A stretch of DNA of 24,000 nt. Source: Coriobacteriales bacterium (lineage in GTDB: Bacteria > Actinomycetota > Coriobacteriia > Coriobacteriales > UBA8131). Below the pieces are notes generated by a model. That model saw only the letters and a list, made by a program, of their open reading frames with translations, was not told the DNA's origin and searched no databases. The first letter of the stretch is position 1. The number at the start of each line of letters is the position of its first letter. Where the stretch lies: the NCBI GenBank assembly GCA_031274985.1, contig JAISPK010000016.1:222-24221 (forward strand), read 5' to 3'. Of the stretch, positions 2,464 through 18,346 are shown in pieces. The position numbers and the translations under genes were made by a program.

Positions 2464-4016
2464 AGCTCTGGCAAAAGATATTCCTCTTTACCCTGACCCT
2501 AGTGATCATTGTGGTCAATGCCTCGTCACTGGCGCTGCTCTCAAACAATCATCGCCTCGCCATTGAGCGCGAGCAGCAAAACGCTCTGGCAAGACACAAC
2601 TACCTGGATCTTGAGATCAGGAATAAGGTCAGCTATTCCAAGGTCGTCGAACGCAAGTTTGCTCTGACCGAAGCAGAGTCCCTGCAGATAGCCATCAATG
2701 TGCTGGAGCAGCAGCAGGGAGACGCCGGCATGGGCGTGGCGCTCTACAAAGATCGTCTGCCCATCTCCTTTGCCAATGAGGCAGACATTGGCACTGCCGT
2801 CGATTTGCTCAATGAGCCCGACTATAGCTCGGTCATTGAGGAGTCAGGCAACAAGACCCTGCTTTACATCGTCTCCACTATCGAACTCAGCGATCGGCCC
2901 TACCAATTGGTCACCACGTATGACATCAGCTCAACCTATGAGTTGTTTCGCAAAGACTTTGACCAGATACGCGTCATCGGTATCATCTCTGCGCTCCTTG
3001 TGTCCGGGATACTGCTTTTGCTGGTGCGCGGCCTCCTTAACCCTTTGCGCAATCTCAGTAGCACTACCGGCCTCATTGCCAGCGGCGACCTGGACAAACG
3101 CGCCACCGTTAAGGGGCATGATGAGGTTGCCGAGGTAGCTCGCAGCTTTAACACGATGGCTGATTCCATTGAGAGCAACGTAACGGCGCTGGAGGGCCTG
3201 GCAGAATCGCGGAGGGTCTTTATCTCCAATCTTGCCCACGAGATGAAGACGCCCCTCACTTCGATACTGGGTTTTGCCGACCTTCTCAGGGTCAAACGCG
3301 AGGTGTCGGAGTCCGAACGCATCGAATATGCCAGTGTCATCGTCAGTGAGACCAAGCGCTTGCAGGAGCTCTCCGGCAAGCTGATGGAGCTTTTGTTTGT
3401 GGGTAATCTCGAGACTTCTCCCGTGGTGGTTGCGGTAAAGGATTTTGCTGCAGAGCTCACCACGGTTTTAGAGCCTATCGTTGCCAATCATTCCCTTGAG
3501 CTGAGATGCGAGCTGCCGGGCAAGCCGGTATTCATAAGGATTGACAAGGAGATGATGAAGTCTTTTATCTTTAACCTTGTTGACAACAGCATCAAAGCGT
3601 CAAGCCCCCAGCACGTTATCAGGCTCATCTTTGAGGAGGTCAGCGCGAGCGCCGAAGAAGCGGGCTTAGTTGCTGCGGAAAGCGACACTGCTCTTGAAGC
3701 GAATGAGGGCGGGCCTTTTGAGGGCAGCTCTGCTGAGGGAGGGCCTTTTGAGGGCGACCCCGCCGAGGTACTTGAACTGGTAAAGATCACAGTGGTTGAC
3801 GAAGGCATCGGTATCCCCTCCGAGGAGATTGCGCTCATTGTGGAGCCGTTTTACATGCTCGACAAGGCTCGCACGCGCAAGCACGGCGGCGCGGGCCTTG
3901 GCCTGGCGCTCTGCTCTGAAATCGCCCGCGCCCACGGCTCAAAGCTTATAATCAAGAGCATAGAGGGACGAGGTACGGCTATAAGCGTTCTGCTCAAAAA
4001 GGAGAAGGGCGCATGA
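2460..4016 (+). CDS. Membrane sensor histidine kinase (2 TM, HAMP, HisKA, HATPase_c)
   Basis: The TTG start overlaps the regulator stop (cTTTGA). The H-box is SNLAHEMKTPLTSILGF, the N-box is FNLVDNSIKAS, and the G-boxes are VDEGIGIP and GGAGLGLALC. There are two hydrophobic segments and a HAMP-like linker. Confidence 0.9.
   Translation: MKLWQKIFLFTLTLVIIVVNASSLALLSNNHRLAIEREQQNALARHNYLDLEIRNKVSYSKVVERKFALTEAESLQIAINVLEQQQGDAGMGVALYKDRLPISFANEADIGTAVDLLNEPDYSSVIEESGNKTLLYIVSTIELSDRPYQLVTTYDISSTYELFRKDFDQIRVIGIISALLVSGILLLLVRGLLNPLRNLSSTTGLIASGDLDKRATVKGHDEVAEVARSFNTMADSIESNVTALEGLAESRRVFISNLAHEMKTPLTSILGFADLLRVKREVSESERIEYASVIVSETKRLQELSGKLMELLFVGNLETSPVVVAVKDFAAELTTVLEPIVANHSLELRCELPGKPVFIRIDKEMMKSFIFNLVDNSIKASSPQHVIRLIFEEVSASAEEAGLVAAESDTALEANEGGPFEGSSAEGGPFEGDPAEVLELVKITVVDEGIGIPSEEIALIVEPFYMLDKARTRKHGGAGLGLALCSEIARAHGSKLIIKSIEGRGTAISVLLKKEKGA
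3705..3764 (+). repeat. In-frame 30-bp tandem duplication inside the kinase ATP-binding domain insert
   Basis: gagggcgggccttttgagggcagctctgct is followed directly by gagggagggccttttgagggcgaccccgcc. These encode EGGPFEGSSA and EGGPFEGDPA. Confidence 0.85.
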
Positions 4017-5098
4017 GTAATTCCGTCAAGAAGAAAAACTCGTGGAAGCGGGTATCGAGCAACGAAAAGCCCGACGCCCGGGAGGTGAGCCCCAGCACGC
4101 TTGCCAATGCGCTCACGGTGCTGCTCACCGTAATCATCATTGCCGGCGGCTTTATGCTGCCCACGCTGACCTTTCCTCTCCTCGATTCTTACAGCAACCG
4201 GTCGATTCAGCTGACGAGCCCCTCTGACGACATGATCTCCGGCCACATCTTTGAAGAGCCGGTGACGCTTTACCCCTGGAATATCTATGATGAGGCGCGG
4301 ACGCGAAAACTCACCGTGGTTGAAATGGCCCAGCTCGATCAAAGTGGGGTTATCGACCTCCTGATTAGCACGATGCAGCATCACAGCATTGCGCTTGGCT
4401 ATCGATACGAGGTTTATCAGGAACGTATCCTCAGCAGTTTTCATTGGCTTGAGCCCGTGAGCGCCTCGGACGCCGGCTGCTTTGTAATGGTAGAGGCAGA
4501 TATTGATTTTGACGGAAACCCCGATGCCAGTTGTGCCGTTGACCTCAATGGCAATCTCATATCGCTGCTCTTTGTTTCAGATACCTGGGGTGCTCTGCGG
4601 CTTACCGACCCCATCGCCGTGCCCCCGGAACAAGCTCAGGTGAATGCTGAGGGGTCAGGCAATGCACCCACGAGTAGCCCTGCCGGTGAAACTCCTGCGC
4701 TACAGAACCTGCCTTCGGCCCCCAATGGGTCGCCCGTAGATTATCTGCCGCTGCAAGAAGACGAGAGCATCTGGCTGTTTTCTTATGTGCTCTCGCGCGA
4801 GGCGCTTATTGCGGGGCAGAGCGATGTTTACTATACGTTTAGACAGCTTGATCTGTACTATGAGGAGCGCTTTGCCTACCCCTACATCAACTTAATCCCT
4901 GCGCCGCCGGACTACGTAGAGACCCTGCCAAATATCGAGCCCATTGCCATTACCTATGACAACCTGAGTACCGACAATTACCTCCACAAGATCTACGACT
5001 TTGCAAACGGCACAAGACTGATTTTGTACATCAACCCCCTCACGCAAAACTGCGATGGCTTTAACCTCGCTATTTCAACGGTTTTTACAACTTCATGA
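4013..5098 (+). CDS. Hypothetical membrane-anchored protein, translationally coupled to the kinase
   Basis: The ATGA start/stop overlaps the kinase gene. There is one N-terminal TM segment (LTVLLTVIIIAGGFMLPTLTF). I recognise no motif in the remaining roughly 300 residues. Confidence 0.6.
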   Translation: MSNSVKKKNSWKRVSSNEKPDAREVSPSTLANALTVLLTVIIIAGGFMLPTLTFPLLDSYSNRSIQLTSPSDDMISGHIFEEPVTLYPWNIYDEARTRKLTVVEMAQLDQSGVIDLLISTMQHHSIALGYRYEVYQERILSSFHWLEPVSASDAGCFVMVEADIDFDGNPDASCAVDLNGNLISLLFVSDTWGALRLTDPIAVPPEQAQVNAEGSGNAPTSSPAGETPALQNLPSAPNGSPVDYLPLQEDESIWLFSYVLSREALIAGQSDVYYTFRQLDLYYEERFAYPYINLIPAPPDYVETLPNIEPIAITYDNLSTDNYLHKIYDFANGTRLILYINPLTQNCDGFNLAISTVFTTS

Positions 5099-5456: not shown

Positions 5457-6575
5457 TCAACTTCCGTAGTAGGCAACCAGAAGATCCACGCAGGCGCCGT
5501 AACTTCTCATGCCCAACACCTGGCCCTGATTATGGAGAAACCCTGTATAGGCCAGCTCACTGATCTCGGCAGTTTTGGAGTCGTATTGCGCCCAGTATTT
5601 GTTGTTGGCGGCAAGGTCTCTTTGAGCGTTTTCTCCCAGATAAGAAGCTGCCTCTACCCAATCCTCATAGCTCGCCTCGTAGAGGGCGTTTGCCAGATGG
5701 ATATAGGCAAGGAGTGCGCCACTGTAGACATAGTTGATGTCATCGCTTTGCAGGCACACCAGTACGGCGGTAAAGTTAGCGTCCTGCTCCCGGGTAACCC
5801 CGCGTTGATGCGCCAGTTCGTGCGCGGTGGCAGAAGGAATGAAGCAATCCGGCGAGAGAACATTGATGTTTGCTTCGCCCGTAAAGGGAAAGAAACCGCC
5901 GGTAAAGTTCATCTCACTCATTACGCTTGAAAAGACCAGGGCTTTTGGCCTAACCTCGGGCCCCTCCAGAAAGCTGAACTCTCCGGGCAGGCCGGTGTAG
6001 AGCGCCGGAGCCTCGCGGAGCGTTTTTTGGATATCGCAGCTGTACACCCCGTTTTCGTTGCGACTGACGCCCTCTCCTGCTGCATTGGCTGCCTCGGCAA
6101 AGCTGATGGTGACCTCTTTAAGCTGCTCAACACTCAGTGGCTCGGTCTTGATGCCGCTGAGCTCGGTGTACGTGTAGGAGTAAAACCCGATGCCCCAGAG
6201 CCAACAGACAAGGGCATAGACCATCAGCGCACCGGCGCCAAGAGAGATGAGCGCGCCATAGATACGGAGCAGTTTTTGCGGCTGGCAAATCACCCTGACA
6301 ATGACAACAACCAGGTATATCAGAACACCAACTACCACCAGAGCGCACAACCACTCCGCAACCGAAAAGGGAAAGAGCCCAAAAAACCCGCCGGACAAAC
6401 GGTGCCAGGGTCGCGTGAGGTGAGTCATAACGTAATCAGCTGCAGCGCGCTCGTTTCTCAGGAGATAGTAGGCGCCAAGCAAGGCAGCCGCCCCCGCAAG
6501 CACAAGGTGTCTGCCGATAAACCGCCTCAGGGGATTCTTGCGGGCTTCCCGGCATTTTTCGCTCTCTAAGTCCAT
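5457..6575 (-). CDS. DUF3810-like integral membrane protein with an HExxH zinc-metallopeptidase-type motif
   Basis: The 372-aa ORF has about 3 N-terminal TM segments. It then contains NFTGGFFPFTGEANIN and ATAHELAHQRGVTREQDANF, that is HExxH plus a downstream Glu. The family call is from memory of DUF3810 and is unverified. Confidence 0.55.
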   Translation of the reverse strand: MDLESEKCREARKNPLRRFIGRHLVLAGAAALLGAYYLLRNERAAADYVMTHLTRPWHRLSGGFFGLFPFSVAEWLCALVVVGVLIYLVVVIVRVICQPQKLLRIYGALISLGAGALMVYALVCWLWGIGFYSYTYTELSGIKTEPLSVEQLKEVTISFAEAANAAGEGVSRNENGVYSCDIQKTLREAPALYTGLPGEFSFLEGPEVRPKALVFSSVMSEMNFTGGFFPFTGEANINVLSPDCFIPSATAHELAHQRGVTREQDANFTAVLVCLQSDDINYVYSGALLAYIHLANALYEASYEDWVEAASYLGENAQRDLAANNKYWAQYDSKTAEISELAYTGFLHNQGQVLGMRSYGACVDLLVAYYGS

Positions 6576-6581
6576 GCCCGG

Positions 6582-7085
6582 CTAGGCACTGACTTTTAAC
6601 AGGCCGACTGCTTCAACCAGCAGGTCATCGAATTCTTTGCGAGCAAAGAGCTTGAGTGATTCCTCGCTGAGTTGCCCCTCTTTGTGTTCATACCTGAGCT
6701 TTTCTTTTTCCATCAGGGCGCTTTTTATCTTTTCGGTACTGATGATGGCGGCGTAGCGCTTTGTTTCAAACTCCCAGAACCGGTCCTGGCCAAATTCGCT
6801 GACTTTTTCGTTGAAGACTGCCGAGCCCTCCATGCTGCTTTTGAATTTTGCTATGCGCTCATGCACCTCCTGCGGCAGCGCAACCACCCCTTTGATCTCT
6901 CCTAAACAAAACACTGCCCTCAATTGAACGATCTGGGTAATGATGGTTTCTCTCGCGGGCGGGGTGATGTCTTCGGTTCCCTGCAGCGCTAAGATCAGAT
7001 TGTGCCTGAAATGCTCGTAGTCAATCTCTGCCTGCGAAACTTCTACCCCGTCTATGGTGAGATGAATATCAGTGCTCATGATCAC
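6582..7085 (-). CDS. Hypothetical acidic cytoplasmic protein (167 aa), overlapping the nosF stop
   Basis: It is a clean ORF with no signal peptide or TM segment and no motif I recognise. It overlaps nosF by 17 nt and ends 6 nt before the next gene. Confidence 0.55.
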   Translation of the reverse strand: MIMSTDIHLTIDGVEVSQAEIDYEHFRHNLILALQGTEDITPPARETIITQIVQLRAVFCLGEIKGVVALPQEVHERIAKFKSSMEGSAVFNEKVSEFGQDRFWEFETKRYAAIISTEKIKSALMEKEKLRYEHKEGQLSEESLKLFARKEFDDLLVEAVGLLKVSA

Positions 7086-7992
7086 ACCCGCCTTTTTGCT
7101 GATAGATTGAGTGATAGATATCTTCGAGGGTTATCTCTAGTATCTCCATGTCCCCCAGCTGCTCAAAGGAGCTGATCTTATCGATGACCTCCAGCTTGTT
7201 TTCGTAGGAACACGATACAACCTGCCAGCCTTTTTCGCTGGTGATTGGATAATCGAGCCTAGCCTTGAGCTCGTCTGCACTCACCTCCGGCTCAAAGAAA
7301 GCCTTGACCCTGACCTTGTTTGCCCCGCCCCTCTTGAGCTCTTTGACGCTGCCGAGGGCGATGAGGTCGCCCTCCCGCATGATGCCAACGCGATCAACCA
7401 GCTCTTCCACTTCGCTCAAGATGTGCGAGGTAAAGATGATCGTCTTGCCGCTCTCGTTGAGCTGATTGATGATTTTTTTGCTCTTGATTACCCAGAGGGG
7501 ATCCAGGCCGGAGGTGGGCTCATCGAGTATCAGCAGCGGTGAGTCCGGCAGAAGCGCGATGGCAAGGCCGAGCCTCTGGGTCATTCCCTTTGAAAAGCTG
7601 CCGACCTTTTGCTTGCCAAGTTCTGAGAGCTCTACCAGTTTGAGCAGCTCATCTACCCTGCTGTCAGGAAGCTTTTGCAGCCGGGCAAAGAAGCGCAGCG
7701 TCTCTGAGGCGCTCAAATGAGGAAACAGCGCCATGGTCTCAGGCATGTAGGAGAACTGCTTTTTGACCTCTTTTTGAAGGGGAGCGACCTCCTGCCCGTT
7801 GATTTTCATGCACCCGGCGCTGGCTTGCAGCAGACCCACGAGCATCTTGATCAGGGTTGTTTTGCCTGCCCCGTTATGACCGAGGAGGGCAAAGATCTCG
7901 CCCCGCTCGATATTGAGCGACACGTTTTTGACCACGTCTTTTTTGCCGTAGGTCTTGGTTAGGCAGGATATCTCAACGATAGGCAACGTCAC
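7069..7992 (-). CDS. nosF: ABC transporter ATP-binding protein, NosF-like
   Basis: Walker A is GHNGAGKTT, the signature-like motif is FSKGMTQRLGLA, Walker B is LLILDEPTSGLD and the H-loop is FTSHIL. The GTG start overlaps the nosY stop (GTGA). The call also rests on its context within the nos cluster. Confidence 0.8.
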   Translation of the reverse strand: MTLPIVEISCLTKTYGKKDVVKNVSLNIERGEIFALLGHNGAGKTTLIKMLVGLLQASAGCMKINGQEVAPLQKEVKKQFSYMPETMALFPHLSASETLRFFARLQKLPDSRVDELLKLVELSELGKQKVGSFSKGMTQRLGLAIALLPDSPLLILDEPTSGLDPLWVIKSKKIINQLNESGKTIIFTSHILSEVEELVDRVGIMREGDLIALGSVKELKRGGANKVRVKAFFEPEVSADELKARLDYPITSEKGWQVVSCSYENKLEVIDKISSFEQLGDMEILEITLEDIYHSIYQQKGGCDHEH

Positions 7993-8825
7993 TTGTGTAC
8001 GCTCCTTTTAAAGAAGAATACCGACAGTACTAACGGTGCGATGATCCAGAAAACAATCCCCGCCAGCATCAAAAGCTCGCTCGAAACATTGGTGATCATT
8101 CTGGTGAGCTCGATGAGGCTCGGGCCAAAGATCGTCTCTCCGCCAAGGCTCACAATTGCCAGGATCCTTACCGCGTCCGCCGGGTTGAGCAGGATCGTGC
8201 TCACCAGAAAAACGGCCATGGACGTACCGCTGAACAGATTTGCTGCCGCCATGACCAGCAGGTCATAGACAAGGATGAAAAAGACCCAGACTATCGCACT
8301 GACGATGAGCGCGGTGATCCGCTTTTTTACGAGCACCGAAACCAGCAGGGATATGCTCAAAAACGCCAGAGCGAGCAGGATGGTAAGACCAACGAAAATG
8401 AGGTAGGCCTGTGCGTCAACCGCTGACACGTTAAAGGCAACGACCATTCCCATGAGGCCAAAGCCCACAACGATGGTAACGATGAGCGCGGCAGCTATCC
8501 CCAGATACTTGCCGAGGATCAGCTCAAGGGCGCTGATTGGCTTTGACAGCATCAAATCCATCGTGCCCAGCTCTCTCTCGCTTGAGATTGAGGTGCCACC
8601 CAGCAAAAGCGTGATCATCGGAATGAGCAGCAAAACCAGATTGAGCAGGCTCGCGGTGGTTTTATTGAAGCTCTCAAAGCCCATGGTGGTGCTGTTGAAG
8701 ATTCCCAGATAGATAATCGAAAAAGACAGGGCGATAAAGACCGCCAGAAAGGCATAGAACCACCGGTTGCGCAGAGAGTCCAGTATCTCTTTGCCTATCA
8801 GTATTTTGATCGTGTGCAGATTCAT
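7989..8825 (-). CDS. nosY: ABC-2-type permease, NosY-like
   Basis: The 278-aa protein is highly hydrophobic with about 6 TM segments. It lies between nosL and nosF and is translationally coupled to nosF. Confidence 0.75.
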   Translation of the reverse strand: MNLHTIKILIGKEILDSLRNRWFYAFLAVFIALSFSIIYLGIFNSTTMGFESFNKTTASLLNLVLLLIPMITLLLGGTSISSERELGTMDLMLSKPISALELILGKYLGIAAALIVTIVVGFGLMGMVVAFNVSAVDAQAYLIFVGLTILLALAFLSISLLVSVLVKKRITALIVSAIVWVFFILVYDLLVMAAANLFSGTSMAVFLVSTILLNPADAVRILAIVSLGGETIFGPSLIELTRMITNVSSELLMLAGIVFWIIAPLVLSVFFFKRSVHK

Positions 8826-8828
8826 TAG

Positions 8829-8860
8829 CCTGTCGCTGTCTCTATCGCTGTCTCTATCGC
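8829..8860. repeat. 12-bp tandem repeat (cgctgtctctat, about 2.6 copies) in the nosL-nosY spacer
   Basis: Read directly from the sequence: ctgt cgctgtctctat cgctgtctctat cgcg. Confidence 0.8.
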
Positions 8861-8874
8861 GGTTTTACAACTGC

Positions 8875-9381
8875 TTAATGCAGCATCATCTCGCTGCCCA
8901 TGGGGCCATTATCGTCAGTAGACATCATCTCTCTACGCATCTTCATGGTGTCCATAACATCTGCCCAGCTCACCTCTTCGCCGGTGTACTCCGCGAGGAA
9001 GGCATCCAGGCTGCTCTTGTCTGCAAAGGCAACGAATCCTGAATTCATCGGGGTCATCACTTTTTCTGATGAGGCAAAAAGTGCCGTTTCGGTGCTGACC
9101 CACTCCAGTGAATAGAAGTCCCTGACGTAGCAGGTTCCCTCGAGGGCTATACCCTTTACGATATAGACTGCCATACAGGCGATGTCGTCGAATTTGTCCA
9201 CGGTTTTGGCATCGACAACAATCTGAGCAGCAAACTGATTGTCCATGACCGTCATGGAGCAGTTAGCGCAGACGTCTACCTTCTCGTCTATGGGTTTGGG
9301 CGCAAGACCCGCTCCTCCCACGCAGCCTGTCAGAGCCACCACAAACAGCAACACCGCCACAAAAGAAATACGTTTTTTCAT
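8875..9381 (-). CDS. nosL: NosL copper-chaperone-type lipoprotein
   Basis: It has a lipoprotein signal (VVALTGC). The segment DVCANCSMTVMD parallels the NosL CxxCxM...D motif. The later YVRD and GFVAFADKSSLDAFLAEYTG segments resemble NosL family conservation. Confidence 0.8.
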   Translation of the reverse strand: MKKRISFVAVLLFVVALTGCVGGAGLAPKPIDEKVDVCANCSMTVMDNQFAAQIVVDAKTVDKFDDIACMAVYIVKGIALEGTCYVRDFYSLEWVSTETALFASSEKVMTPMNSGFVAFADKSSLDAFLAEYTGEEVSWADVMDTMKMRREMMSTDDNGPMGSEMMLH

Positions 9382-9437
9382 AGTAACTTCCCTTTCTTCA
9401 CTCGCCTTGATACCACTTTATACCAGTAACAATTCTC

Positions 9438-10826
9438 TCACTTCTTAAAACTTCTCGACACGGTTCTCATAAAACCAACGCCCAGCAAAACGGCACACAG
9501 CGACACCGCAAAGGTAACTACGCCCGCTGCGGTGCTCTTTTGCGAGACGATCTTCTCCAGCAGGTCCGTGTTTCCGTCGTGCATCAAAGGAAACTCATCA
9601 ACGATCTCTGCCCGTTTGACAACCGGAAACATCGCGTCAACCGTTTTGAGCAGATTGGCGGTGGGACTCTCGGAAAACAGCCTCATAAAGGGAAACTCAT
9701 ACATCGAGTACTCAAAGGCCGAGCCGGAGCGATAGGCGGTATCCCCTACCCCGTCTTTTTGGGTGTCAATACCGGAGTAATCGCTCCAATAGTTTCCTCT
9801 GCCCTCGTGCGACCAAAAATCATTGGTTCTGATCTCATTGACCGAGACCTGCTGAAAATTGTCGAGAAAACTGTTGTCGGTAAAAACGTTTTCCCAGTTG
9901 CTCCCCAGCATCTCCATGCCAATGTCGTTTTGCATCATCGTGTTGTTTTTGAAATACAATCGGTTAGACAGGTCTGAGTACACCCCGATGTTGTTTTTAA
10001 AGAACAGGTTGTTCTCAATGACCCCGTCGGATACCAGCTGAAAAAACAGGCCAAAGCAGCGCGGCCCCGTGTTCTCGGCAAACACGTTGTGGTCCAAGGT
10101 TATGTTCAGTGAAAACATTATCGCTGCTCCTGAAACATTGTGGCCTAAATAGTTGTACCGAAAGACATTGTCGTCCGAAGACATGTAGTGCAGACCGTAG
10201 CGCACAAAGGTAACGCAGCTATTGGAAACCGTTGTTTTGTCGCATTGATCAAAATAAATCCCGTCCCGGGTAGCCGTTATCACATTGCCGTCAGCAAGAT
10301 TATTTCTCGTGTTAAAAAAATGGATCCCGTTTCCTCGTTTGGAGAATTGCTCCTCTTCAAACCCGGTAATGCTGTTGTCTTTAAGCAAAACGTTTTCGCA
10401 CTCGCTCACGTAAATGCCAAAGAGCACGTCTTGGAGCTTGTTGTCGATAACCTCAGAGTTGCTGGCTCCTTCTATCAGGATTCCCGCATCGTTATCCAGG
10501 TAATTACGGCCACTCGAGCAGATGGTAAAGCCTTTGATAACGACCCTGGCATCGCGCGCCTCAACAACGTGCCTGGTGTAGCTGCCATTAATGACCGCCT
10601 GATGCCTCTCGACCGACTCAAGGGTGACCGCTTTATTGATGAGCAGGTTCTCTGTGTATACGCCCGGGGCTACCCTGATGACATCCCCGTCCTGTGCGGC
10701 ATCGAGCGCAGAGCTAATCGTCGCAAACGGCTTGTCCTGACCAACTTCCAGCTCTGCAGCAGACGCTGAGGCGGCAGGTATGAGAATGAACAGCAGGGCA
10801 AATATCAGGCACGTTTTCTTGCCCAC
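9438..10826 (-). CDS. nosD: NosD, parallel beta-helix copper-centre maturation protein, with a C-terminal TM anchor
   Basis: The signal peptide ends ASASA/AE. There are repeated beta-helix turns (DNSITG, GNGIHFF, GNVITATRDGIYF, VRYGLHYMSSDDNVFRYN, NVSGAAIMFS, NNIGVYSD). The C-terminus has the hydrophobic segment VVTFAVSLCAVLLGVGF. Confidence 0.85.
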   Translation of the reverse strand: MGKKTCLIFALLFILIPAASASAAELEVGQDKPFATISSALDAAQDGDVIRVAPGVYTENLLINKAVTLESVERHQAVINGSYTRHVVEARDARVVIKGFTICSSGRNYLDNDAGILIEGASNSEVIDNKLQDVLFGIYVSECENVLLKDNSITGFEEEQFSKRGNGIHFFNTRNNLADGNVITATRDGIYFDQCDKTTVSNSCVTFVRYGLHYMSSDDNVFRYNYLGHNVSGAAIMFSLNITLDHNVFAENTGPRCFGLFFQLVSDGVIENNLFFKNNIGVYSDLSNRLYFKNNTMMQNDIGMEMLGSNWENVFTDNSFLDNFQQVSVNEIRTNDFWSHEGRGNYWSDYSGIDTQKDGVGDTAYRSGSAFEYSMYEFPFMRLFSESPTANLLKTVDAMFPVVKRAEIVDEFPLMHDGNTDLLEKIVSQKSTAAGVVTFAVSLCAVLLGVGFMRTVSRSFKK

Positions 10827-11488
10827 AGCTTATCACCCCAAGTGCCGACAAACACAAAGACTGCACTTGCAACGAGGAAGAAAAATCCTATGCGAAACGA
10901 GCTGTAGGTGGTGAAATTGGCCAGATGGTTTTCGCCGATCATCGGCGGTACAAAAGGTGGAACGATGATAGGCGCATCAGGAGCCAGGTTTGACCCAAAG
11001 GTCTGGAGCCAGTGATACATGTCATAGAGTCCTACTGCGGCACCAACGACAAACAGGGCGCAGGCAATGTAGGCAAGTTTTCGCGACCCGAGGAGCGCTA
11101 CGGCAACAATGAGCGCTGCCATACCCCAGATAATGTACTTAATATACTGGAGCTCCGGAAAGCCTGCTTCGCTGATTTTGTCCATGCCGATGTAGTGATT
11201 CAAAGCATTGAGGTTTACGATGTCATACTCGCCCTGACCTGCCAGTTTATCGGGGTACACGATGATTGACAGACCCTCCGGATACTGCGGTGCTAACAGA
11301 TCCAGCCCCCACCAGGGCAAAAAGGACGACACGAGCAACAGGATTGCTCCCCCTATCAAGAGGCCTCTGCTCGCAGTTGGAAACTTCTTCTTGTGCCTGG
11401 GCTGAACTTTTTTCTTCCCGGGATCTGACGATTCCTGCGCCTGCGCGCTGCCGCCTTGAGCTTCGTTGGAAAGTGATACTGCACTCAT
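10805..11488 (-). CDS. Integral membrane protein directly downstream of nosZ (NosB-like by position and topology)
   Basis: The 227-aa protein has a basic cytoplasmic N-terminus and about 4 TM segments. It overlaps nosD by 22 nt. Clade II nos clusters typically carry the membrane protein nosB at this position. The assignment is positional only. Confidence 0.5.
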   Translation of the reverse strand: MSAVSLSNEAQGGSAQAQESSDPGKKKVQPRHKKKFPTASRGLLIGGAILLLVSSFLPWWGLDLLAPQYPEGLSIIVYPDKLAGQGEYDIVNLNALNHYIGMDKISEAGFPELQYIKYIIWGMAALIVAVALLGSRKLAYIACALFVVGAAVGLYDMYHWLQTFGSNLAPDAPIIVPPFVPPMIGENHLANFTTYSSFRIGFFFLVASAVFVFVGTWGDKLWARKRA

Positions 11489-11520
11489 AGTTGTGTCCCC
11501 GTCTCTCTCTTGGTTGCACA

Positions 11521-11569
11521 GTCAAACAAAGGGGGTGCGGGAAAAGTCACCAACTCGTCCGCACCCCCC
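11521..11569 (-). terminator. Intrinsic-terminator-like hairpin between nosZ and the next gene
   Basis: On the minus strand, GGGGGTGCGG, an 18-nt loop and CCGCACCCCC form a perfect 10-bp GC-rich stem. The stem is followed by TTTGTTTG and lies 14 nt after the nosZ stop. Confidence 0.6.
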
Positions 11570-11582
11570 AGTATACTGGAAA

Positions 11583-13418
11583 TTACTTAGGCTTAACTAA
11601 GAGATAGCCCTGCATCTCCTGATGGAGTGCCGAACAGAAGTTAGAGCAAAAGTACGGAAATACTCCGGCTTTGTTGGCCGTGAACTTAACCGTACTGGTT
11701 TGCCCGGGTTGTACCTCAAAGTTAACATTGTGGAGATTGATAGCAAACCCGTGGGTAATATCCTGATCGAGGTCGATGTTGGTGAGGTGGATGGTGACGT
11801 TGTCGCCTTGGTTGACCTGAACCACGTCGGGCAGGAAGCGCGAACGTACGGCAAGGGCGTACACGGTTACGTCGCTGCCATTTCTCTCGATTCTTGCCTC
11901 TTCTTCACTCCAGATAGAATCGGGATTGCTCGGATCCTTAGGAATGACGAAGATCGTCTTGATCTTGTCGGCTTTGATCGTCTGAGCATAGTGGGGCTCA
12001 GGATCGATAGGCGCCTCGTTGATGACGGCCATCTTGTCGCTGGCAAGGTCGACGAGCTGCATGTTCTCAGGATGCGAGGGGCCCACCGGCAGGTGACGGT
12101 CTGTTGAGAGCTTGTTTAAAGCAACGAGATATTTGCCGTCGGGGCTGACGGTGTCGCCCTCAGCGGCGGTGCTGTGTCCCGGGCTGTACTGAACCGCAAC
12201 GGTGTCGACAACTTTCCACTCGCCTATCTTCCACTTGGCAACGGTGCTGTCGACAAACAGGGTCGTATAGGCCCAACCATCAAGACCAAACTGGGTGTGC
12301 AGGGGCCCGAGACCCGCTTCGACCTCGGCCTCAAGTACGGACTCATAGTTCAAAATCGGAATGCCGCGCTTGGTTTCCAGATAGTCTTTTGCGTCAATAG
12401 CCTTGAGCATTTTCTCAAAGCTGAATACGCTGCAGATTGGAGCCAGCTTGCCGTTGGTGATGAAGTATTTGCCGTCAGGGGTCACGTCAACGCCGTGCGG
12501 GCTTTTGGCCGCCGGAATTGCGTACACAACGCCCTCGGTTTTTTCGGGATCAATCACTTTTTGGCCGTTGATCTCGGTATACTTGCCGTCAGCTACAGCC
12601 TGTTCAGCGGCCTTCCAGTTGATGCACATACAATAGTCGGTCTCGTTTTTGGAGGCATTGACCTCAAGCAGCGTGCTGGCTTCTTCGGAGTTGTAGGTTG
12701 ACATAAACGCCCAGCCTTCCGAGGGACCCTTGCCCGCGTCTGAGAGATCGTAGTTCCAGGGCGGAAGCTTGATCTGCCAGGCCGGCGTCATAAAACCGGT
12801 GGCCTGATCAATAGCAATGGCCTGCATGACGCCATCGTACTTAGCGCTGTATTGATCCAGTTCGTAGTAGGCACCGTCCATCGGAACCGAGAATCTCGTA
12901 CCCATCATAAAGTACTCTGTGTTGGGGGTGACAAATACAGCGGAGTGGGGTCCCATGAGATTGGGGATCGGTCCGACGATCTGCTTGGTCTGGAAGGTTG
13001 TGAGGTCAATCATCGCGGCACGGTTGTTTGCGTTGTCGTTGGCAAACAGGAACCGTCCGTCGTAATCGCCCTTTGTTTCGCTTAGTGAAGGGTGGTGCAG
13101 GTCTCCCCAGGTAAAGTCACCCATCATCGCTTTGGTGTGCTCATCAAATCCGTAGCCTGTTGCTGAGTCTTGAGAAAACACCGGAATGGTACGAATGCGC
13201 CTGAGTGACGGAACTCCTATGACAAATATCTGCCCGGAGTGACCACCTGAGGCAAACATGTAGTACTCGTCGTGTTCTCCGGGTGGCACAAAGAGTCTGA
13301 CGTCACCTGCAGCAACGCTTGGTGTTCCAGCTGGCGTGCATCCTGCCAGCCCTGCCGCCGTAGCAGCAGCAATGGTCCCGCCTCCCATAATGAATGATCT
13401 TCTCGACAGTTCTTTCAT
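11583..13418 (-). CDS. nosZ: Nitrous-oxide reductase NosZ (Tat signal plus lipobox; clade II-type DxHH motif)
   Basis: The CuA site is HGF...CSNFCSALHQEM. Seven candidate CuZ histidines are present (GDLHHPS, GPHSAVF, SPHGVDVTPDG, GPLHTQF, SPGHST, EPHYAQ). The N-terminus is MKELSRRSFIMGGGTIAAATAAGLAGC. Confidence 0.95.
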   Translation of the reverse strand: MKELSRRSFIMGGGTIAAATAAGLAGCTPAGTPSVAAGDVRLFVPPGEHDEYYMFASGGHSGQIFVIGVPSLRRIRTIPVFSQDSATGYGFDEHTKAMMGDFTWGDLHHPSLSETKGDYDGRFLFANDNANNRAAMIDLTTFQTKQIVGPIPNLMGPHSAVFVTPNTEYFMMGTRFSVPMDGAYYELDQYSAKYDGVMQAIAIDQATGFMTPAWQIKLPPWNYDLSDAGKGPSEGWAFMSTYNSEEASTLLEVNASKNETDYCMCINWKAAEQAVADGKYTEINGQKVIDPEKTEGVVYAIPAAKSPHGVDVTPDGKYFITNGKLAPICSVFSFEKMLKAIDAKDYLETKRGIPILNYESVLEAEVEAGLGPLHTQFGLDGWAYTTLFVDSTVAKWKIGEWKVVDTVAVQYSPGHSTAAEGDTVSPDGKYLVALNKLSTDRHLPVGPSHPENMQLVDLASDKMAVINEAPIDPEPHYAQTIKADKIKTIFVIPKDPSNPDSIWSEEEARIERNGSDVTVYALAVRSRFLPDVVQVNQGDNVTIHLTNIDLDQDITHGFAINLHNVNFEVQPGQTSTVKFTANKAGVFPYFCSNFCSALHQEMQGYLLVKPK

Positions 13419-13444
13419 AGTTTGTCCCTCTCTCTTAATACTCT

Positions 13445-13909
13445 CTAACTGTTATAACCTTTCAAAATTTCGATTACCTCTTGCTTCTCAGTATCTGAAA
13501 GTGGTGAGTTGCCCAGGATCACTGACATGGTCCCTTCCGGCTTGTCCATGAACTCTTCGAGCGTGAGCCCAAAGCGCTTATTAACCTCCGTGTAGGCACC
13601 TGCCAGATCAGGCCCGGTTCCGTTGCCCTTTAAGCCCAACGGGCTTATGTCGTGGCATTTCATACAGTTGCGCTTAACCAGGATGTTGGTTTCTTCGCTG
13701 TTTGTTGCGTTGTTGTCGTTGTTGGCGTTGTTGTCGTTGTCGTTTGCCGCCTGTTGAGTGTTTGCCTGCGCGTCGTCAGTACTGTTGGAGGCCGCGCAGC
13801 CGGCTATCTGGCCTACTGCTCCCAGACTCAAAATAACCACGACAATAAAAAGTAGGCCTTTGTGTAAGAGATTCTTCAAGTTTACCCTCCTTAGGTTTGT
13901 AGGAATCAT
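13445..13909 (-). CDS. Monohaem c-type cytochrome lipoprotein upstream of nosZ (NosC-like)
   Basis: It has a single CxxCH (CMKCHD), a lipobox (GQIAGC) and an Asn/Asp-rich linker. I prefer the ATG at 13909, which is preceded by GGAAAGGAACGGG. The ORF track start at 13981 (GTG) would add 24 residues ahead of the signal peptide. Confidence 0.75.
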   Translation of the reverse strand: MIPTNLRRVNLKNLLHKGLLFIVVVILSLGAVGQIAGCAASNSTDDAQANTQQAANDNDNNANNDNNATNSEETNILVKRNCMKCHDISPLGLKGNGTGPDLAGAYTEVNKRFGLTLEEFMDKPEGTMSVILGNSPLSDTEKQEVIEILKGYNS

Positions 13910-14053
13910 CCCGTTCCTTTCCGCTTTGCAGTTTTGCTGTTCTGCGCGTCCGGCAAAGCCGGATGTTGCAGAATTCACCACTGTTTCTCTCCCTGGTTCC
14001 CGCGCTTTGAGATAGTCTCTGCTTTCTTTAAAGCACAGGAGTACACAGTCATA

Positions 14054-14164: not shown

Positions 14165-14218
14165 CCTGTTTTCTCTGGTAGTCTTGTTGCATCATCTAAG
14201 AGTGAACCTTGCGGGTCA

Positions 14219-14235
14219 GTAAACGCGAAGTAAAC
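14219..14235 (+). promoter_or_regulatory. Two GTAAAC copies (reverse complement of GTTTAC) 11 bp apart, embedded among three GGGTCAGT repeats
   Basis: GTAAAC lies at 14219 and 14230. GGGTCAGT lies at 14213, 14240 and 14256. All are just upstream of the kinase start. Confidence 0.35.
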
Positions 14236-14267
14236 ACGAGGGTCAGTCAGTAAGAGGGTCAGTGAAC

Positions 14268-16046
14268 ATGAAGGTTAAAGAGCCCAAGCCTTTCAAATTC
14301 AGTATCCGACTTAAGCTTGCTGTTTTTGTTGGGGCGCTTATTGCTGCGTTGATGACCGGGGACGCTCTGTGGACTGCCTCACTCCAACAACAACAATCAG
14401 AATTCGAAGCGCACGAAAAGGCCGAGGTGCTCGCGGGAGAAATGCGCGCGGTGTGGGATTTTCTCGACATAAACCAAAACATCGTCAATCGCACGCTGGA
14501 CGGGGCGATTCGCTCAAAAACGCTGGTATGCGTTGTTGCAGCAAAATCGATTAGCTACCTCTTTGCGGAGGACACCGACTACACGATTCGCTTTGTCAAT
14601 CAAACACCGCGCGAAGTTGTGGGCACGCCTGACGCCTTTGAAGAGCGGGCTTTTGCCGCGTTCATAGCTGACGGCAAGCTGGAGGCCTATTCTGAAGTCG
14701 AGATAAACGAGCAGGGCGAGCGCGTCTTTCGCTATGCCGAACCCCTGTATGTCACCACGATGTGCCTGGAGTGCCACGGGGACCCGGCAGGAGAACTCGA
14801 CCAGTACGGCTATGAAAAAGAGGGCATGCACATCGGGGATATCGGAGGGGCGCTCTCTATCATTGAGCCCATGAATATCTACCGGGAAGGCATGCAGCGC
14901 AGCGTTATGCAGCAGTTGATCATGGTGTTGATTATGTTTGTCCTTGCCAGTATAGGCATCTATTATGCGGTAAACCGGCTGGTCTTGCGCCCCATCGAAA
15001 AGCTCGAGCATGCTGCAAAGAAAATCGGTGGCGGAGAATTCAAATACACGCTCAACATCAAGAATTTTGGTGGCTCAGACGAAATCACCGCTTTTGTTGA
15101 GGACTTTGACAAAATGGCCCAGCGGCTCAAGCATCTCTACCTCGACCTCGAGAGCGAGGTGGCGCTCCGCACCGAAGAGCTCTACGAGCTCAATAAGCTG
15201 CTTATTCAACAGAAGACGGAGCTCAAGGAAGCGCTTGACCGCTTAAACGAAGAAACCGCCTATAAGAGCGAGTTCTTTGCCATTATGAGCCACGAGCTCC
15301 GAACGCCTCTTACCTCGGTGCTTGCCTTTGCCCGCATCCTTCAGGCTTCGGACACCCTTGACGACAAGACCTCTCATTCGGTTGAGGAGATTGAGGTCAA
15401 TGCAACGCTTCTCCTCAATATGGTCAATAACATGTTGACCCTTGCAAAAGCCGAGGCGCTCAAGAACGAACTCCTGGTTGAGCCGGTTGATTTTGTTGAC
15501 CTGATTGGGTTTGTGAAGGATTCGCTTGAGCCAATAGCGCGCAACAAGGGCATCGACTTTACCGCAAAAACCAACCTGGACGTGCCGGTGACCATGGCAG
15601 ACTGGGAAAAGCTCCGGCGCATCGTAGAAAACCTCGTTGACAATGCCATCAAATACACACAAACGGGCGGCGCCATCAGCATCAGCGTGCATTATGAGTG
15701 TGCTGAGGCGGCGGTACCGGGCTCTGGCGAGAGTTCTGACGAAAACGGCGCTTCTGAGTGTCCGTGCAAAGACGGCTTTGTGGTGATAGTGGTAGCCGAC
15801 GATGGCATGGGAATTGCCGCAGAAGACCAGGAGACGATCTTTGATCGCTACAAACAGGGAATCCAGTCTCCTGACCGCCGCTATCGAGGCACCGGACTCG
15901 GCCTGGCGGTAGTTAAGGAGCTCACTGAGCTGCATGGTGGGACGGTCTCTTTTGAATCCACCATTAATAAAGGGAGTACCTTTACGGTGCGCATCCCCTA
16001 TATCCGGGTAGATACCGAGGGCTATTATGAAGATACTACTGGTTGA
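14268..16046 (+). CDS. Sensor histidine kinase with extracytoplasmic c-haem (CxxCH) DUF3365/Tll0287-like domain, HAMP, HisKA, HATPase_c
   Basis: Between TM1 (LAVFVGALIAALMTG) and TM2 (LIMVLIMFVLASIGIYYAV) lies FRYAEPLYVTTMCLECHGDPAG. The H-box is MSHELRTPLTSVLAF, the N-box is NLVDNAIKYT, and the G-boxes are DDGMGI and GTGLGLAV. The ATG at 14268 has AAGAGGG 9 nt upstream. The GTG at 14262 is an alternative start. Confidence 0.85.
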   Translation: MKVKEPKPFKFSIRLKLAVFVGALIAALMTGDALWTASLQQQQSEFEAHEKAEVLAGEMRAVWDFLDINQNIVNRTLDGAIRSKTLVCVVAAKSISYLFAEDTDYTIRFVNQTPREVVGTPDAFEERAFAAFIADGKLEAYSEVEINEQGERVFRYAEPLYVTTMCLECHGDPAGELDQYGYEKEGMHIGDIGGALSIIEPMNIYREGMQRSVMQQLIMVLIMFVLASIGIYYAVNRLVLRPIEKLEHAAKKIGGGEFKYTLNIKNFGGSDEITAFVEDFDKMAQRLKHLYLDLESEVALRTEELYELNKLLIQQKTELKEALDRLNEETAYKSEFFAIMSHELRTPLTSVLAFARILQASDTLDDKTSHSVEEIEVNATLLLNMVNNMLTLAKAEALKNELLVEPVDFVDLIGFVKDSLEPIARNKGIDFTAKTNLDVPVTMADWEKLRRIVENLVDNAIKYTQTGGAISISVHYECAEAAVPGSGESSDENGASECPCKDGFVVIVVADDGMGIAAEDQETIFDRYKQGIQSPDRRYRGTGLGLAVVKELTELHGGTVSFESTINKGSTFTVRIPYIRVDTEGYYEDTTG

Positions 16047-16725
16047 CGACGAAGCGAGCATCCGAAGGCTCGTAGCCAGCATGATTACCGATGCAGGCTA
16101 TGAATTTTCCTATGCAGAAGATGGCATCAAGGCGCTTTCTGTCGCAGAAAAGAGCAAGCCGGATCTCATCATCCTGGATGTGATGATGCCCCAAATGGAC
16201 GGATTTACCACGTGCCGCAAGTTGCGCGAAAAAGGCATCACTGCGCCCATCATCTTTCTCTCGGCAAAAGGTGACATCGTTGACAAGGGCATAGGTTTTG
16301 AGGCCGGCGGCGATGACTATCTGGTAAAACCTTTTGACCCCAGAGAGTTGCTCATGCACATTGAGGCGCATCTCCGGCGGGCTCAGATGGCACCGCACAC
16401 CAAGGGGGAGCAGGCTGCTGTGCTGCGTATTGGCAGATTTATGCTGGACAGCGGCCGGTTTCGCGCTGCTAAAGACAACCAGCAGCTTATGCTCACCGTC
16501 AAAGAATTCAGGATTCTCTATACCCTTGCCAGCAACTATGGCATGGTAATCTCAAGAGAACAGCTTGTCGAGGCCGTATGGGGGAGAGAATTTGTTGGCG
16601 AGACCTCGAGCATCACCGTTTTTATCAAGAAACTGAGAGAAAAGATAGAGGACGACCCGTCGGAGCCTCAGTTCATTCAAACGGTCTGGGGTCTTGGCTA
16701 TCGGTTTGAGCCGGGTGCACCGTGA
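16027..16725 (+). CDS. OmpR/PhoB-family response regulator
   Basis: The receiver is MKILLVDDEASIRR...DLIILDVMMPQMDG...VKPF and the winged helix is LTVKEFRILYTL...ITVFIKKLREKI...WGLGYRF. It overlaps the kinase gene by 20 nt. Confidence 0.9.
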   Translation: MKILLVDDEASIRRLVASMITDAGYEFSYAEDGIKALSVAEKSKPDLIILDVMMPQMDGFTTCRKLREKGITAPIIFLSAKGDIVDKGIGFEAGGDDYLVKPFDPRELLMHIEAHLRRAQMAPHTKGEQAAVLRIGRFMLDSGRFRAAKDNQQLMLTVKEFRILYTLASNYGMVISREQLVEAVWGREFVGETSSITVFIKKLREKIEDDPSEPQFIQTVWGLGYRFEPGAP

Positions 16726-16769: not shown

Positions 16770-18122
16770 TCAGCCCAGATAATTATCTCTTTGCCACGTG
16801 CCGCTTAAGACCTCACCTGAGGCGTAGGTAAAAGTGCCCTGGCCGGAGCGGTAACCGCCCAGGAAGTTGCCGGTGTAACTCCCGTAGTAGTTTCCTGCAA
16901 TATCCCTATAGGTCTGTGTGCCAAAGCCGGTTCTGGCGCCGTTGAGCCAGGCGCCCGTATACGATGACCCGTTGGTAAAGTAAATAGTTCCCTGGCCTTG
17001 CTGTATACCGTCGACCCAATCGCCGGTATACGACCAGCCTGCTGCGCTGATGTAGCTGCCTGAGCCGTTCTCGAGGTTGTTGTTCCATCCGCCGCTGTAG
17101 ACCGAGCCGTCCTGGTAACGGTAGGTTCCCTGACCACTGCGCTGCCCGGCGCTCCATTCTCCTTCGTAGACCCAGCCCAGCGCACTGGTGAGCGTGCCCC
17201 ATCCCTCTTCTTTTCCTTTGGCCCACTGGCCCGTATACACCGACCCGTCTGAATAGGTAAGGGTGCCCGTACCACTTCTGCTGCCTTTTTCAAAGGAGCC
17301 TTCGTACGTCCAGCCCTCCGTAGAAACAAAGACGCCGGTTCCATGGATCTCGTCATTAAAAAACTCGCCCGTGTAAACCGAGCCGTCTTTGTAGGTCAAC
17401 ACGCCGCTGCCCTGGCGGATACCTCTCTGCCAGTCTCCGATATAGGCCGGGAGAGCGCTCGACCCCGGCGTAAAGGTTCCCCGGCCGTCGGGCATATCAT
17501 TTTTGAATGCACCCGTATAAACCGAGCCGTCCCTATAGGCAAGGGTCCCCTGACCCTGCCTGACTCCTCCGACAAAATTACCTTCGTAGACCCAGCCCTC
17601 TTTGCTGGTCAACACGCCAAAGCCGTCCCAAAGTCCGTTTTTCCAGCTTCCTTTGTAGACGGAGCCTCCCTGATAATAAAAGGATCCCTGCCCCTGCATC
17701 TCGTCTTCAGCCCATTGGCCTTCGTATCTTTCGCCGTTGGGCAAGGTATAGGTTCCTCGTCCTTCTCGCTTGCCTTCGGAAAAGGTGCCTTGATAAATCG
17801 GTCCTTCGGCATAACGCAGGATACCCTGGCCGTCATAGAGACCGTCTTTGTAGTTACCAAAGTAGAGATCGCTCGCAAAGAATTGAAAATAGGTAAAAAT
17901 GCAAAGGAACACGAGGGAGACCGCTGCCACTGCCGTGCAGTATATTTGGGCTTTTTTGCGAGTTTTTAGAGGGGCTCTTTCAAGGAGAGAGCCTTTTCTG
18001 ATGAGAACTACACCCGTTATTGCGATGCAGAGCACTATTATTCCGAGGGCCACAATAAAAGTAGCCAAGACAGATCCTCCCGTCTGTTTCGTGTCCCCCA
18101 GAAACAGGCACCAATCTACCAT
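16770..18122 (-). CDS. MORN-repeat membrane protein
   Basis: Two N-terminal TM segments are followed by about 15-16 tandem 23-aa units of the form YxGxWxxGxxxGxG (for example YEGQWAEDEMQGQG and YTGQWAKGKEEGWG). Confidence 0.85.
   Translation of the reverse strand: MVDWCLFLGDTKQTGGSVLATFIVALGIIVLCIAITGVVLIRKGSLLERAPLKTRKKAQIYCTAVAAVSLVFLCIFTYFQFFASDLYFGNYKDGLYDGQGILRYAEGPIYQGTFSEGKREGRGTYTLPNGERYEGQWAEDEMQGQGSFYYQGGSVYKGSWKNGLWDGFGVLTSKEGWVYEGNFVGGVRQGQGTLAYRDGSVYTGAFKNDMPDGRGTFTPGSSALPAYIGDWQRGIRQGSGVLTYKDGSVYTGEFFNDEIHGTGVFVSTEGWTYEGSFEKGSRSGTGTLTYSDGSVYTGQWAKGKEEGWGTLTSALGWVYEGEWSAGQRSGQGTYRYQDGSVYSGGWNNNLENGSGSYISAAGWSYTGDWVDGIQQGQGTIYFTNGSSYTGAWLNGARTGFGTQTYRDIAGNYYGSYTGNFLGGYRSGQGTFTYASGEVLSGTWQRDNYLG

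Positions 18123-18269: not shown

Positions 18270-18346
<77 letters not shown>

Follow-up and report, generated by a model that had tools for sequence, protein, structure and literature searches.

The 24,000-nucleotide (nt) stretch of contig JAISPK010000016.1 analysed here (the window), taken from an assembly recorded as a Coriobacteriales bacterium, very likely carries a complete clade II nitrous oxide (N2O) reduction (nos) operon of the Gram-positive (Bacillota) type, followed by a gene for a SurA-like chaperone and by a DUF3810 gene. The genes occupy positions 5457-13981 of the minus strand as nine co-directional open reading frames (ORFs), all of them intact. An earlier sequence-only reading had described nine co-directional genes with overlaps or short gaps, and this was confirmed at the same span and strand; from nosC to the DUF3810 gene, the junctions measure, in order, +26, +94, -22, +56, +49, -4, -17 and +6 nt. 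The features of the cluster are as follows:

13445..13981 (-): nosC, monohaem cytochrome c lipoprotein; the coordinates are those of the maximal ORF
11583..13418 (-): nosZ, clade II nitrous oxide reductase, 611 amino acids (aa)
13338..13418 (-): predicted twin-arginine lipoprotein signal of NosZ, MKELSRRSFIMGGGTIAAATAAGLAGC, with SRRSFI, a weak h-region and the lipobox LAGC
10805..11488 (-): nosB, 227 aa, four hydrophobic helices
9438..10826 (-): nosD, beta-helix maturation protein, signal at the N-terminus and membrane anchor at the C-terminus
8875..9381 (-): nosL, copper chaperone lipoprotein
7989..8825 (-): nosY, ABC-2 permease
7069..7992 (-): nosF, ABC ATPase, 307 aa, with a C-terminal extension
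6582..7085 (-): orf167, putative SurA-core-like chaperone, without signal peptide
5457..6575 (-): DUF3810 gene, membrane protein with a HELAH (HExxH) motif

Gene order and content

The cluster was compared with the loci of Schinkia sp. CFF1 (L081), a metagenome contig (L082), a Peptococcaceae locus (L001) and JGI Ga0123356_10092748 (L084). L081 and L082 show exactly the order C-Z-B-D-L-Y-F, their individual genes being 47-77% identical to those of the window, and the same order was observed in L001. A scan of a genome collection with NosZ contributed distant clade II loci to the comparison, the nearest Bacillota not being among the matches listed. Across the 82 clade II loci listed, the accessory order follows lineage. 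Acidobacteriota, Anaeromyxobacter and several other loci are arranged as C-Z-B-D-F-L-Y, Bacteroidota, Gemmatimonadota and related loci as Z-B-L-D-F-Y, and Bacillota-type loci as C-Z-B-D-L-Y-F. The accessory order D-L-Y-F reported for the window by the sequence-only reading was confirmed by family assignments.

This layout has already been published. In Bacillus azotoformans, nos1 was described as nosC1-nosZ1-(ORF with four transmembrane helices)-nosD1-nosL1-nosY1-nosF1 (Heylen and Keltjens 2012, PMC3475470), and the Gram-positive 'nosCZ-ORF-nosDYF-ORF' type is shared by Geobacillus thermodenitrificans, Desulfitobacterium hafniense and Desulfotomaculum ruminis (PMC3475470). This type is characterised by a lipoprotein cytochrome c (NosC), the lack of nosGH, a C-terminal helix in NosD and a C-terminal extension in NosF1 (PMC3475470). 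Additionally, nos_1 of Schinkia acidoalkalinis CFF1 carries nosBDLYF (2026, PMC13274427), and NosZ_1, NosDLYF and the adjacent cytochrome c of this strain were found by proteomics during N2O respiration (PMC13274427). A 2024 survey of spore-forming Bacillota presents the same layout (PMC11388526). The window shares with this type the gene order and content, the monohaem lipoprotein NosC and the C-terminal anchor of NosD. The description of the architecture as non-canonical therefore does not hold: the layout is that of B. azotoformans nos1 and CFF1 nos_1, it is found again in L001, L081 and L082, and the sequence-only reading had itself named prior characterisation in Gram-positive N2O reducers as the result that would overturn its claim. 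The gene order and the missing electron-delivery module are ordinary for this type of cluster.

Among known systems, CFF1 nos_1 is a close counterpart, with an identical order including nosL between nosD and nosY, identities of 74% for NosZ, 67% for NosB and 74% for NosY, a SurA_N-like gene after nosF, and no nosR, nosX or nosGH. It differs from the window in that its NosZ_1 has a hydrophobic N-terminus without a twin-arginine translocation (Tat) motif (according to PMC13274427, neither a Sec nor a Tat signal peptide is recognisable), its chaperone carries two cysteines and is a lipoprotein, neither a DUF3810 gene nor a haem-Cache kinase is present, and the host belongs to the Bacillaceae. The type represented by B. 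azotoformans LMG 9581 nos1 and Geobacillus thermodenitrificans NG80-2 resembles the window in gene order, lipoprotein NosC, NosD helix, NosF1 extension and the absence of nosGH, but it has a host from another phylum, a different export signal on NosZ and a trailing ORF with a different localisation signal. Wolinella succinogenes (Campylobacterota), which carries nosB, nosG, nosH, nosC1 and nosC2, likewise has a clade II NosZ followed by nosB and the nosD/F/Y/L maturation genes; unlike it, the window lacks a NosGH module and NosC1/C2, and its cytochrome c is a separate upstream lipoprotein. Clade I nosRZDFYL(X) clusters (Pseudomonas, Paracoccus) have in common with the window a twin-arginine NosZ signal and NosDFYL maturation, whereas the window contains nosB and nosC, lacks nosR and nosX, is ordered differently and encodes a NosZ that scores as clade II.

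NosZ and its export signal

The window NosZ belongs to clade II, since it scores above the cutoff of the clade II model (TIGR04246, 872.7 bits, cutoff 625) and below that of the clade I model (TIGR04244, 482.5 bits, cutoff 625). The CuA motif CSNFCSALHQEM is present, together with the histidine motifs HGF, DLHH, PHG, GPLH and EPH; the ligands were judged by motif. The closest named relatives are from Bacillota (Schinkia sp. CFF1 and Planifilum), with identities of 74% to Schinkia CFF1 NosZ_1 and 68-71% to Planifilum, and P0002, the NosZ of L082, is 77% identical. In a neighbour-joining tree (566 columns, 100 bootstraps), the window and L082 sequences group together with 100% support; Schinkia NosZ_1 joins them at 95% and Planifilum at 100%. 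In this tree, the window NosZ nests inside Bacillota NosZ with 95-100% bootstrap.

The N-terminus of the window NosZ, MKELSRRSFIMGGG...LAGC, combines a twin-arginine motif with a lipobox. The signal reads S-R-R-S-F-I, contains no 19-residue window at the hydropathy threshold of 1.6, and ends in the lipobox LAGC. The Sec-type signal expected of a clade II NosZ was not found in this protein. P0002, which starts ...GLSRRSFLLGAGVTAAAGAAALTGC, displays the same Tat-lipoprotein features. Among the 120 best NosZ homologues, the RR motif occurs in two, P0001 (the record of the window NosZ) and P0002, and is missing from the other 118; the Bacillota N-termini that were read are hydrophobic and of the Sec type. 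Tat-type NosZ of this kind thus number at least two among the matches listed, and because both nest inside Bacillota NosZ, the Tat signal is a derived feature.

A Tat signal on a clade II NosZ is not unprecedented, as a Chloroflexota subgroup and archaea have been cited as exceptions (PMC11409646). Given these documented exceptions, the Tat signal does not remove the window NosZ from the clade. The clade II NosZ of the Chloroflexota class OLB14 (PMC11409646) resembles the window in having nosB and a Tat-type signal, but it belongs to another NosZ lineage and phylum, and no link of its signal to a lipobox or to a signal-less SurA-like chaperone has been reported. For the lineage of the window NosZ, no literature report of a Tat signal was found. 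The motifs indicate that NosZ is probably exported in folded form via Tat.

Host and origin of the cluster

The third-codon-position GC content (GC3) of the nos genes is 0.51-0.71 and that of the flanking genes 0.60-0.72, a match that makes both a chimeric assembly and a very recent transfer less likely. Together with the nesting of NosZ, this suggests a probable acquisition of the cluster from Bacillota, with enough time since then for its composition to have come to match that of the host. No paper on nosZ in Coriobacteriia was found in literature searches, an absence that is no proof of novelty. Denitrification genes were also lacking from the Coriobacteriia with nrfA in a screen of about a million genomes. 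With this locus, N2O reduction may extend to the Coriobacteriia.

The strongest of the competing explanations, although improbable, is that the contig is a mis-binned Bacillota fragment, in which case there would be neither a transfer between phyla nor an N2O reducer in the Coriobacteriales. The nearest named relatives of every nos gene are indeed from Bacillota, and the taxon label derives only from the record of the metagenome-assembled genome, while the window contains no phylogenetic marker gene. However, GC3 is uniform, at 0.6-0.7, over nos and flanking genes, the Tat-lipoprotein NosZ and the signal-less chaperone separate this locus from the 118 other close homologues, and a flanking regulator and kinase match best to the actinobacterial MtrA/MtrB models, although below cutoff. 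The lack of denitrification genes in the nrfA-carrying Coriobacteriia of the screen, which makes a nosZ here unusual, was also listed against mis-binning.

NosC, NosB and electron delivery

A Bacillota-type operon acquired by the host would draw its electrons through NosC. The nosC product contains a single CMKCH motif and the lipobox IAGC, and its likely start is TTG 13879 (behind AGGAGG) or ATG 13909, rather than GTG 13981. NosC is 48-49% identical to the product of the gene before nosZ in Schinkia CFF1 and L082, and NosC homologues precede nosZ in many of the clade II loci listed; on this basis, NosC is presumed to be the direct electron donor to NosZ. The sequence-only reading had noted one monohaem cytochrome c lipoprotein as the sole candidate donor encoded in the 24 kb. 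A six-frame scan supports this, as only two CXXCH motifs were found, one in nosC and one in a sensor kinase described below. That nosR, nosX/apbE and nosGH are absent from the 24 kb was confirmed as well by hidden Markov model and six-frame motif scans: the tested window ORFs gave no Pfam or NCBIfam match to NosR, ApbE or NapGH-type families, and the six-frame scan revealed no CxxCxxCxxxC ferredoxin motif. Since Bacillota-type clusters are proposed to rely on a complex encoded elsewhere, a missing electron module is normal.

In Bacillota, an electron path via a bc/b6c complex and a lipoprotein cytochrome c has been proposed (PMC3475470, PMC13274427, PMC11388526), with QcrABC as the proposed entry in CFF1 (PMC13274427). 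Following this literature, electrons would pass from menaquinol to an oxidoreductase, NosC, CuA, CuZ and finally N2O. NosZ would be tethered as a lipoprotein to the outer face of the cytoplasmic membrane, where its CuA site would take electrons from the neighbouring monohaem lipoprotein NosC, which in turn would receive them from a menaquinol:cytochrome c oxidoreductase with its genes in another part of the genome. NosD, NosF, NosY and NosL would assemble the copper-sulfide centre, and NosB would act as a clade II-specific membrane partner. The lipoboxes of NosZ, NosC and NosL and the C-terminal helix of NosD are predicted to tether these proteins to the membrane.

The maturation genes were assigned by family. 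NosD matches TIGR04247 (364.7 bits, cutoff 300) and PF05048 (E 3.6e-37), with hydrophobic segments at residues 6-24 and 435-453. NosL matches PF05573 (E 7e-11) and has the lipobox LTGC. NosY matches PF12679 (ABC2_membrane_2, E 3e-30) and is 72-74% identical to NosY of L081 and L082. NosF matches PF00005 (ABC_tran, E 5.8e-34), shows 59-66% identity to its 305-aa counterparts in L081 and L082, and shares with both a C-terminal extension past the ABC ATPase domain. This extension matches the '49 aa C-terminal insertion' of B. azotoformans NosF1 (PMC3475470).

The 227-aa ORF after nosZ had no Pfam or NCBIfam match, and no relative was found for its product in the PDB. Its product is 67% and 61% identical to those of the genes after nosZ in Schinkia CFF1 and L082, respectively, and in the majority of the 82 clade II loci listed, nosZ is directly followed by a tblastn match of 29-47% identity. 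The four helices, the identity and the position behind nosZ therefore identify it as NosB. Starting 94 nt past nosZ, and with no NosR-like ORF present, it gives the window the arrangement characteristic of clade II. In an alignment of 55 NosB sequences, the strongest conservation is seen in the motif NHYIGM (N97, H98, G101 and M102 100%, Y99 98%, I100 96%), placed in the loop joining helices 1 and 2. We speculate that this loop faces outward and resembles a His/Met metal site more than a quinol site. Furthermore, position 166 is His in 92% of the 55 sequences, whereas the window, L081 and L082 have Ser or Thr there.

These properties bear on the proposal, which we consider quite unlikely, that NosB itself oxidises quinol and passes electrons on to NosC and NosZ, so that no separate module would be needed. 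Its location after nosZ in most of the clade II loci listed and its four transmembrane helices would suit such a role, and NosB is reported to be essential in Wolinella with no role assigned (PMC11388526, PMC13274427). Nevertheless, the protein has no haem or Fe-S motif and the NHYIGM loop is more suggestive of metal binding than of quinol binding. Moreover, Wolinella needs NosGH and a bc complex besides NosB (Hein et al. 2017, as cited in PMC11388526), and the Schinkia models use QcrABC (PMC13274427). An oxidoreductase encoded elsewhere, with NosC as the proximal donor, remains the preferred route.

A putative SurA-like chaperone at the end of the cluster

The gene following nosF, orf167, encodes 167 aa in our ORF and 165 aa from ATG 7079 in the public record. 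Although orf167 itself has no Pfam match above cutoff, its product is 42% identical (E 1e-38) to a 210-aa lipoprotein encoded directly after nosF in Schinkia CFF1. A profile search identified 21 further homologues of 203-225 aa, several of them with Pfam SurA_N_3, and relatives match PF13624 and PF13623. The AlphaFold (AF2) model of orf167 has a predicted local distance difference test (pLDDT) score of 89, and its top PDB matches are all SurA, with probabilities of 0.97-0.99, template modelling scores (TM-scores) of about 0.5-0.6 and weak E-values (0.06-0.17). The family comprises 61 clusters at E <= 1e-3 among 1.84 billion representatives, and nearly all full-length members start with a lipoprotein signal. 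What the sequence-only reading had entered as an unknown ORF can thus be placed in a SurA_N-like family whose members close the nos clusters of Bacillota. It is a conserved accessory of these clusters, and its product is most likely a folding or assembly chaperone.

Distant relatives (P0148, P0151, P0153, P0156 and P0164) are lipoproteins that combine an N-terminal YtkA-like (FixH-like) domain with a SurA_N-like domain. YtkA/CtaK is a copper chaperone in Bacillus subtilis. These fusions suggest a tie between the orf167 family and the assembly of extracytoplasmic copper sites in Bacillota.

Each of the 15 Bacillota homologues in the alignment has a lipoprotein signal as well as two cysteines, near-invariant and placed in the motifs DYECFR and xCPPEK. 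In the window, the signal and both conserved cysteines are absent, so that the trailing gene of the Bacillota-type cluster is represented by a homologue that is not a lipoprotein. A scan of metagenomes with the chaperone alignment covered at least three loci, of which one (L084) was informative. Its short, signal-less form is 50% identical to orf167 and also lacks the two cysteines, and a signal-less short form is likewise seen after nosF in L082, where 27 residues are visible. As the short form is repeated in L082 and L084, it is not an assembly artefact, and conserved core residues are kept in the forms of the window and L084. The loss of the signal and cysteines may reflect relocation to the cytoplasm or a changed role, or the protein may be a hitch-hiker that leaves with NosZ.

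The same losses could be taken as a sign of decay, that is, of a relic under relaxed selection whose enzyme is non-functional in this host. This would agree with the features missing from the chaperone but conserved in its relatives, with the lack of a visible electron module in the window and with nosZ being apparently unreported in Coriobacteriia. We regard it as very unlikely: the nine ORFs are intact with operon-like junctions, the metal-site motifs of NosZ are preserved, the short chaperone is kept at 50% identity in a second lineage with its core residues retained, and the composition has ameliorated to that of the host.

The locus can serve as a natural experiment in how N2O reductase is exported and matured. 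Within one enzyme lineage, two states are found, a Sec-type anchor with an extracytoplasmic lipoprotein chaperone and a Tat lipoprotein signal with a signal-less chaperone. These two export states bear on the question of why the routes of clade I and clade II differ.

The DUF3810 gene

The last gene of the cluster starts 6 nt past orf167 and is probably co-transcribed with it. Its product matches PF12725 (E 8.4e-82) and contains a HELAH motif and hydrophobic helices at 75-93 and 108-126; no relative was found in the PDB. The junction of orf167 and the DUF3810 gene also occurs in Logan contig L083, and no counterpart was observed in L081 and L084. This distribution suggests a lineage-specific passenger rather than a conserved nos partner. 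A function as quinol dehydrogenase was considered and rejected, given that the NrfD match is sub-threshold and confined to transmembrane helices, that the motif is HExxH and that the gene is not conserved with nos.

The sequence-only reading had raised the possibility that the two extra genes substitute for the missing functions; a truly non-canonical architecture in which orf167 and DUF3810 replace NosR/NosX or NosGH is the least probable explanation, since the absence of nosR, nosX, nosGH and any Fe-S motif from the 24 kb, the tight packing of both genes behind nosF and the NrfD match of the DUF3810 protein (22.7 bits, cutoff 25.8) have to be set against an order and content that equal the published Bacillota type and recur in L001, L081 and L082, a SurA-like helical fold without redox motif that argues against orf167 as an electron carrier, and a DUF3810 gene that is missing from related nos loci and resembles NrfD only in its transmembrane helices.

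A haem-c Cache kinase linked to the operon

Divergent from nosC, a sensor kinase and a response regulator are encoded next to the Bacillota-type operon:

14213..14276 (no strand): 16-nt-period direct repeats, GGGTCAGTRAAC-like, in the nosC-kinase intergenic region
14262..16046 (+): haem-c Cache sensor histidine kinase gene, divergent from nosC
16027..16725 (+): OmpR-family response regulator gene, overlapping the kinase gene

The kinase matches PF11845 with 95 bits (cutoff 24.1) and contains HAMP, HisKA and HATPase_c domains. A CLECH motif is located in the extracytoplasmic Tll0287/DUF3365 domain, and transmembrane segments span 13-31 and 219-237. The protein thereby combines PF11845, a CXXCH motif between two helices and a signalling module, and belongs with the sCache_haem kinases (PMC12889525), with which it shares the extracytoplasmic Cache domain with CXXCH, the HAMP domain and the histidine kinase. 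The response regulator consists of Response_reg (E 1.7e-30) and Trans_reg_C (E 2e-27) domains.

In L084, a kinase homologue at 1596-2880 (42% identity over 261 aa, E 3e-71) immediately follows the gene for the signal-less chaperone, in the same orientation. With one gene divergent from nosC in the window and the other behind the chaperone in L084, the kinase is linked to nos in two arrangements. According to a 2026 preprint, Tll0287/DUF3365 has been reclassed as a haem-c Cache domain, members fused to signalling modules have nitric oxide (NO)-sensor properties, and this domain is rare or absent in Actinomycetota and Bacillota (PMC12889525). A term search of the preprint returned no nos linkage of haem-c Cache sensors. 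By analogy with these sensors, and given its linkage to nos in both arrangements, the kinase is a candidate for a dedicated, possibly NO-responsive regulator of nos in this lineage. The locus thereby places the newly described haem-c Cache NO sensors in a concrete genomic setting, namely next to a nos operon in a Gram-positive. Additionally, three to four GGGTCAGTRAAC-like direct repeats with a 16-nt period overlap the start codon of the kinase gene, and these are possible OmpR-type response-regulator boxes.

Integrated interpretation

New in this locus are the Tat-lipoprotein NosZ with a signal-less chaperone, the linkage to a haem-c Cache kinase and the apparent Coriobacteriales host. Several points weigh against the interpretation as a Bacillota-type operon in such a host and against its details. 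The Coriobacteriales label is taken from the name of the public record alone, and the case for the organism is built on sequence only. As the evidence is a 24-kb window, the presence of a quinol:cytochrome c oxidoreductase, of tatAC and of genes for cytochrome c maturation is presumed. Sequence alone does not prove a Tat signal, and the co-variation of Tat signal and chaperone form is a hypothesis drawn from one lineage, with NosZ visible in two of three contigs. Moreover, the Foldseek E-values of the orf167 model against SurA are weak despite the high probabilities.

Coriobacteriia were well represented among nrfA carriers in the screen of about a million genomes, and this frequency suggests, by analogy, that cytochrome c maturation and NrfH-type quinol dehydrogenases would be available in the class. 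A more elaborate scenario, which we offer tentatively and hold to be possible but rather doubtful, joins these elements. In this scenario, a Bacillota-type operon would have moved into anaerobic Coriobacteriales, where NosZ gained its twin-arginine lipoprotein signal and its dedicated chaperone lost signal and cysteines in parallel, as one switch from Sec to Tat. The chaperone would now act on NosZ in the cytoplasm, serving in Tat proofreading or as a hitch-hiker. Haem-c Cache NO sensing would control the operon, and electrons would enter by a non-bc route, for example one of the NrfH/NapC type. Should this scenario be correct, the source organism would represent the first N2O-respiring Coriobacteriia, and at this locus a copper enzyme and its chaperone would have made a natural switch from Sec to Tat.

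Other features of the window

Outside the nos operon and its adjacent kinase and regulator genes, the window encodes a short helix-turn-helix protein, a metallo-beta-lactamase-fold protein, an ABC exporter and a 351-aa protein without assignment. A scan for promoters and terminators gave counts equal to the shuffled expectation, and an Rfam search of the window yielded no regulatory RNA. Between the haem-Cache kinase/regulator pair and a tRNA-Pro gene, a 450-aa protein is encoded at 16770-18122 (-); it has two hydrophobic helices in its N-terminal part and contains at least seven MORN repeats (233.7 bits). The tRNA-Pro(CGG) gene itself is located at 18270-18346 (-), between the ABC exporter and the MORN-repeat gene. 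Insertion of a genomic island at this tRNA was considered and rejected, as the window contains neither a second copy of the 3' end of the tRNA nor an integrase.

At 1798-5098 (+), a response regulator and a histidine kinase match best to MtrA/MtrB models, below cutoff, and are followed by a 361-aa membrane-anchored protein without family match; in their arrangement, the three genes recall mtrA-mtrB-lpqB. At the right edge (21512-23510, minus strand), a His_kinase with a GAF domain (LytS-like) is paired with a LytTR-type response regulator, both apparently unrelated to nos.

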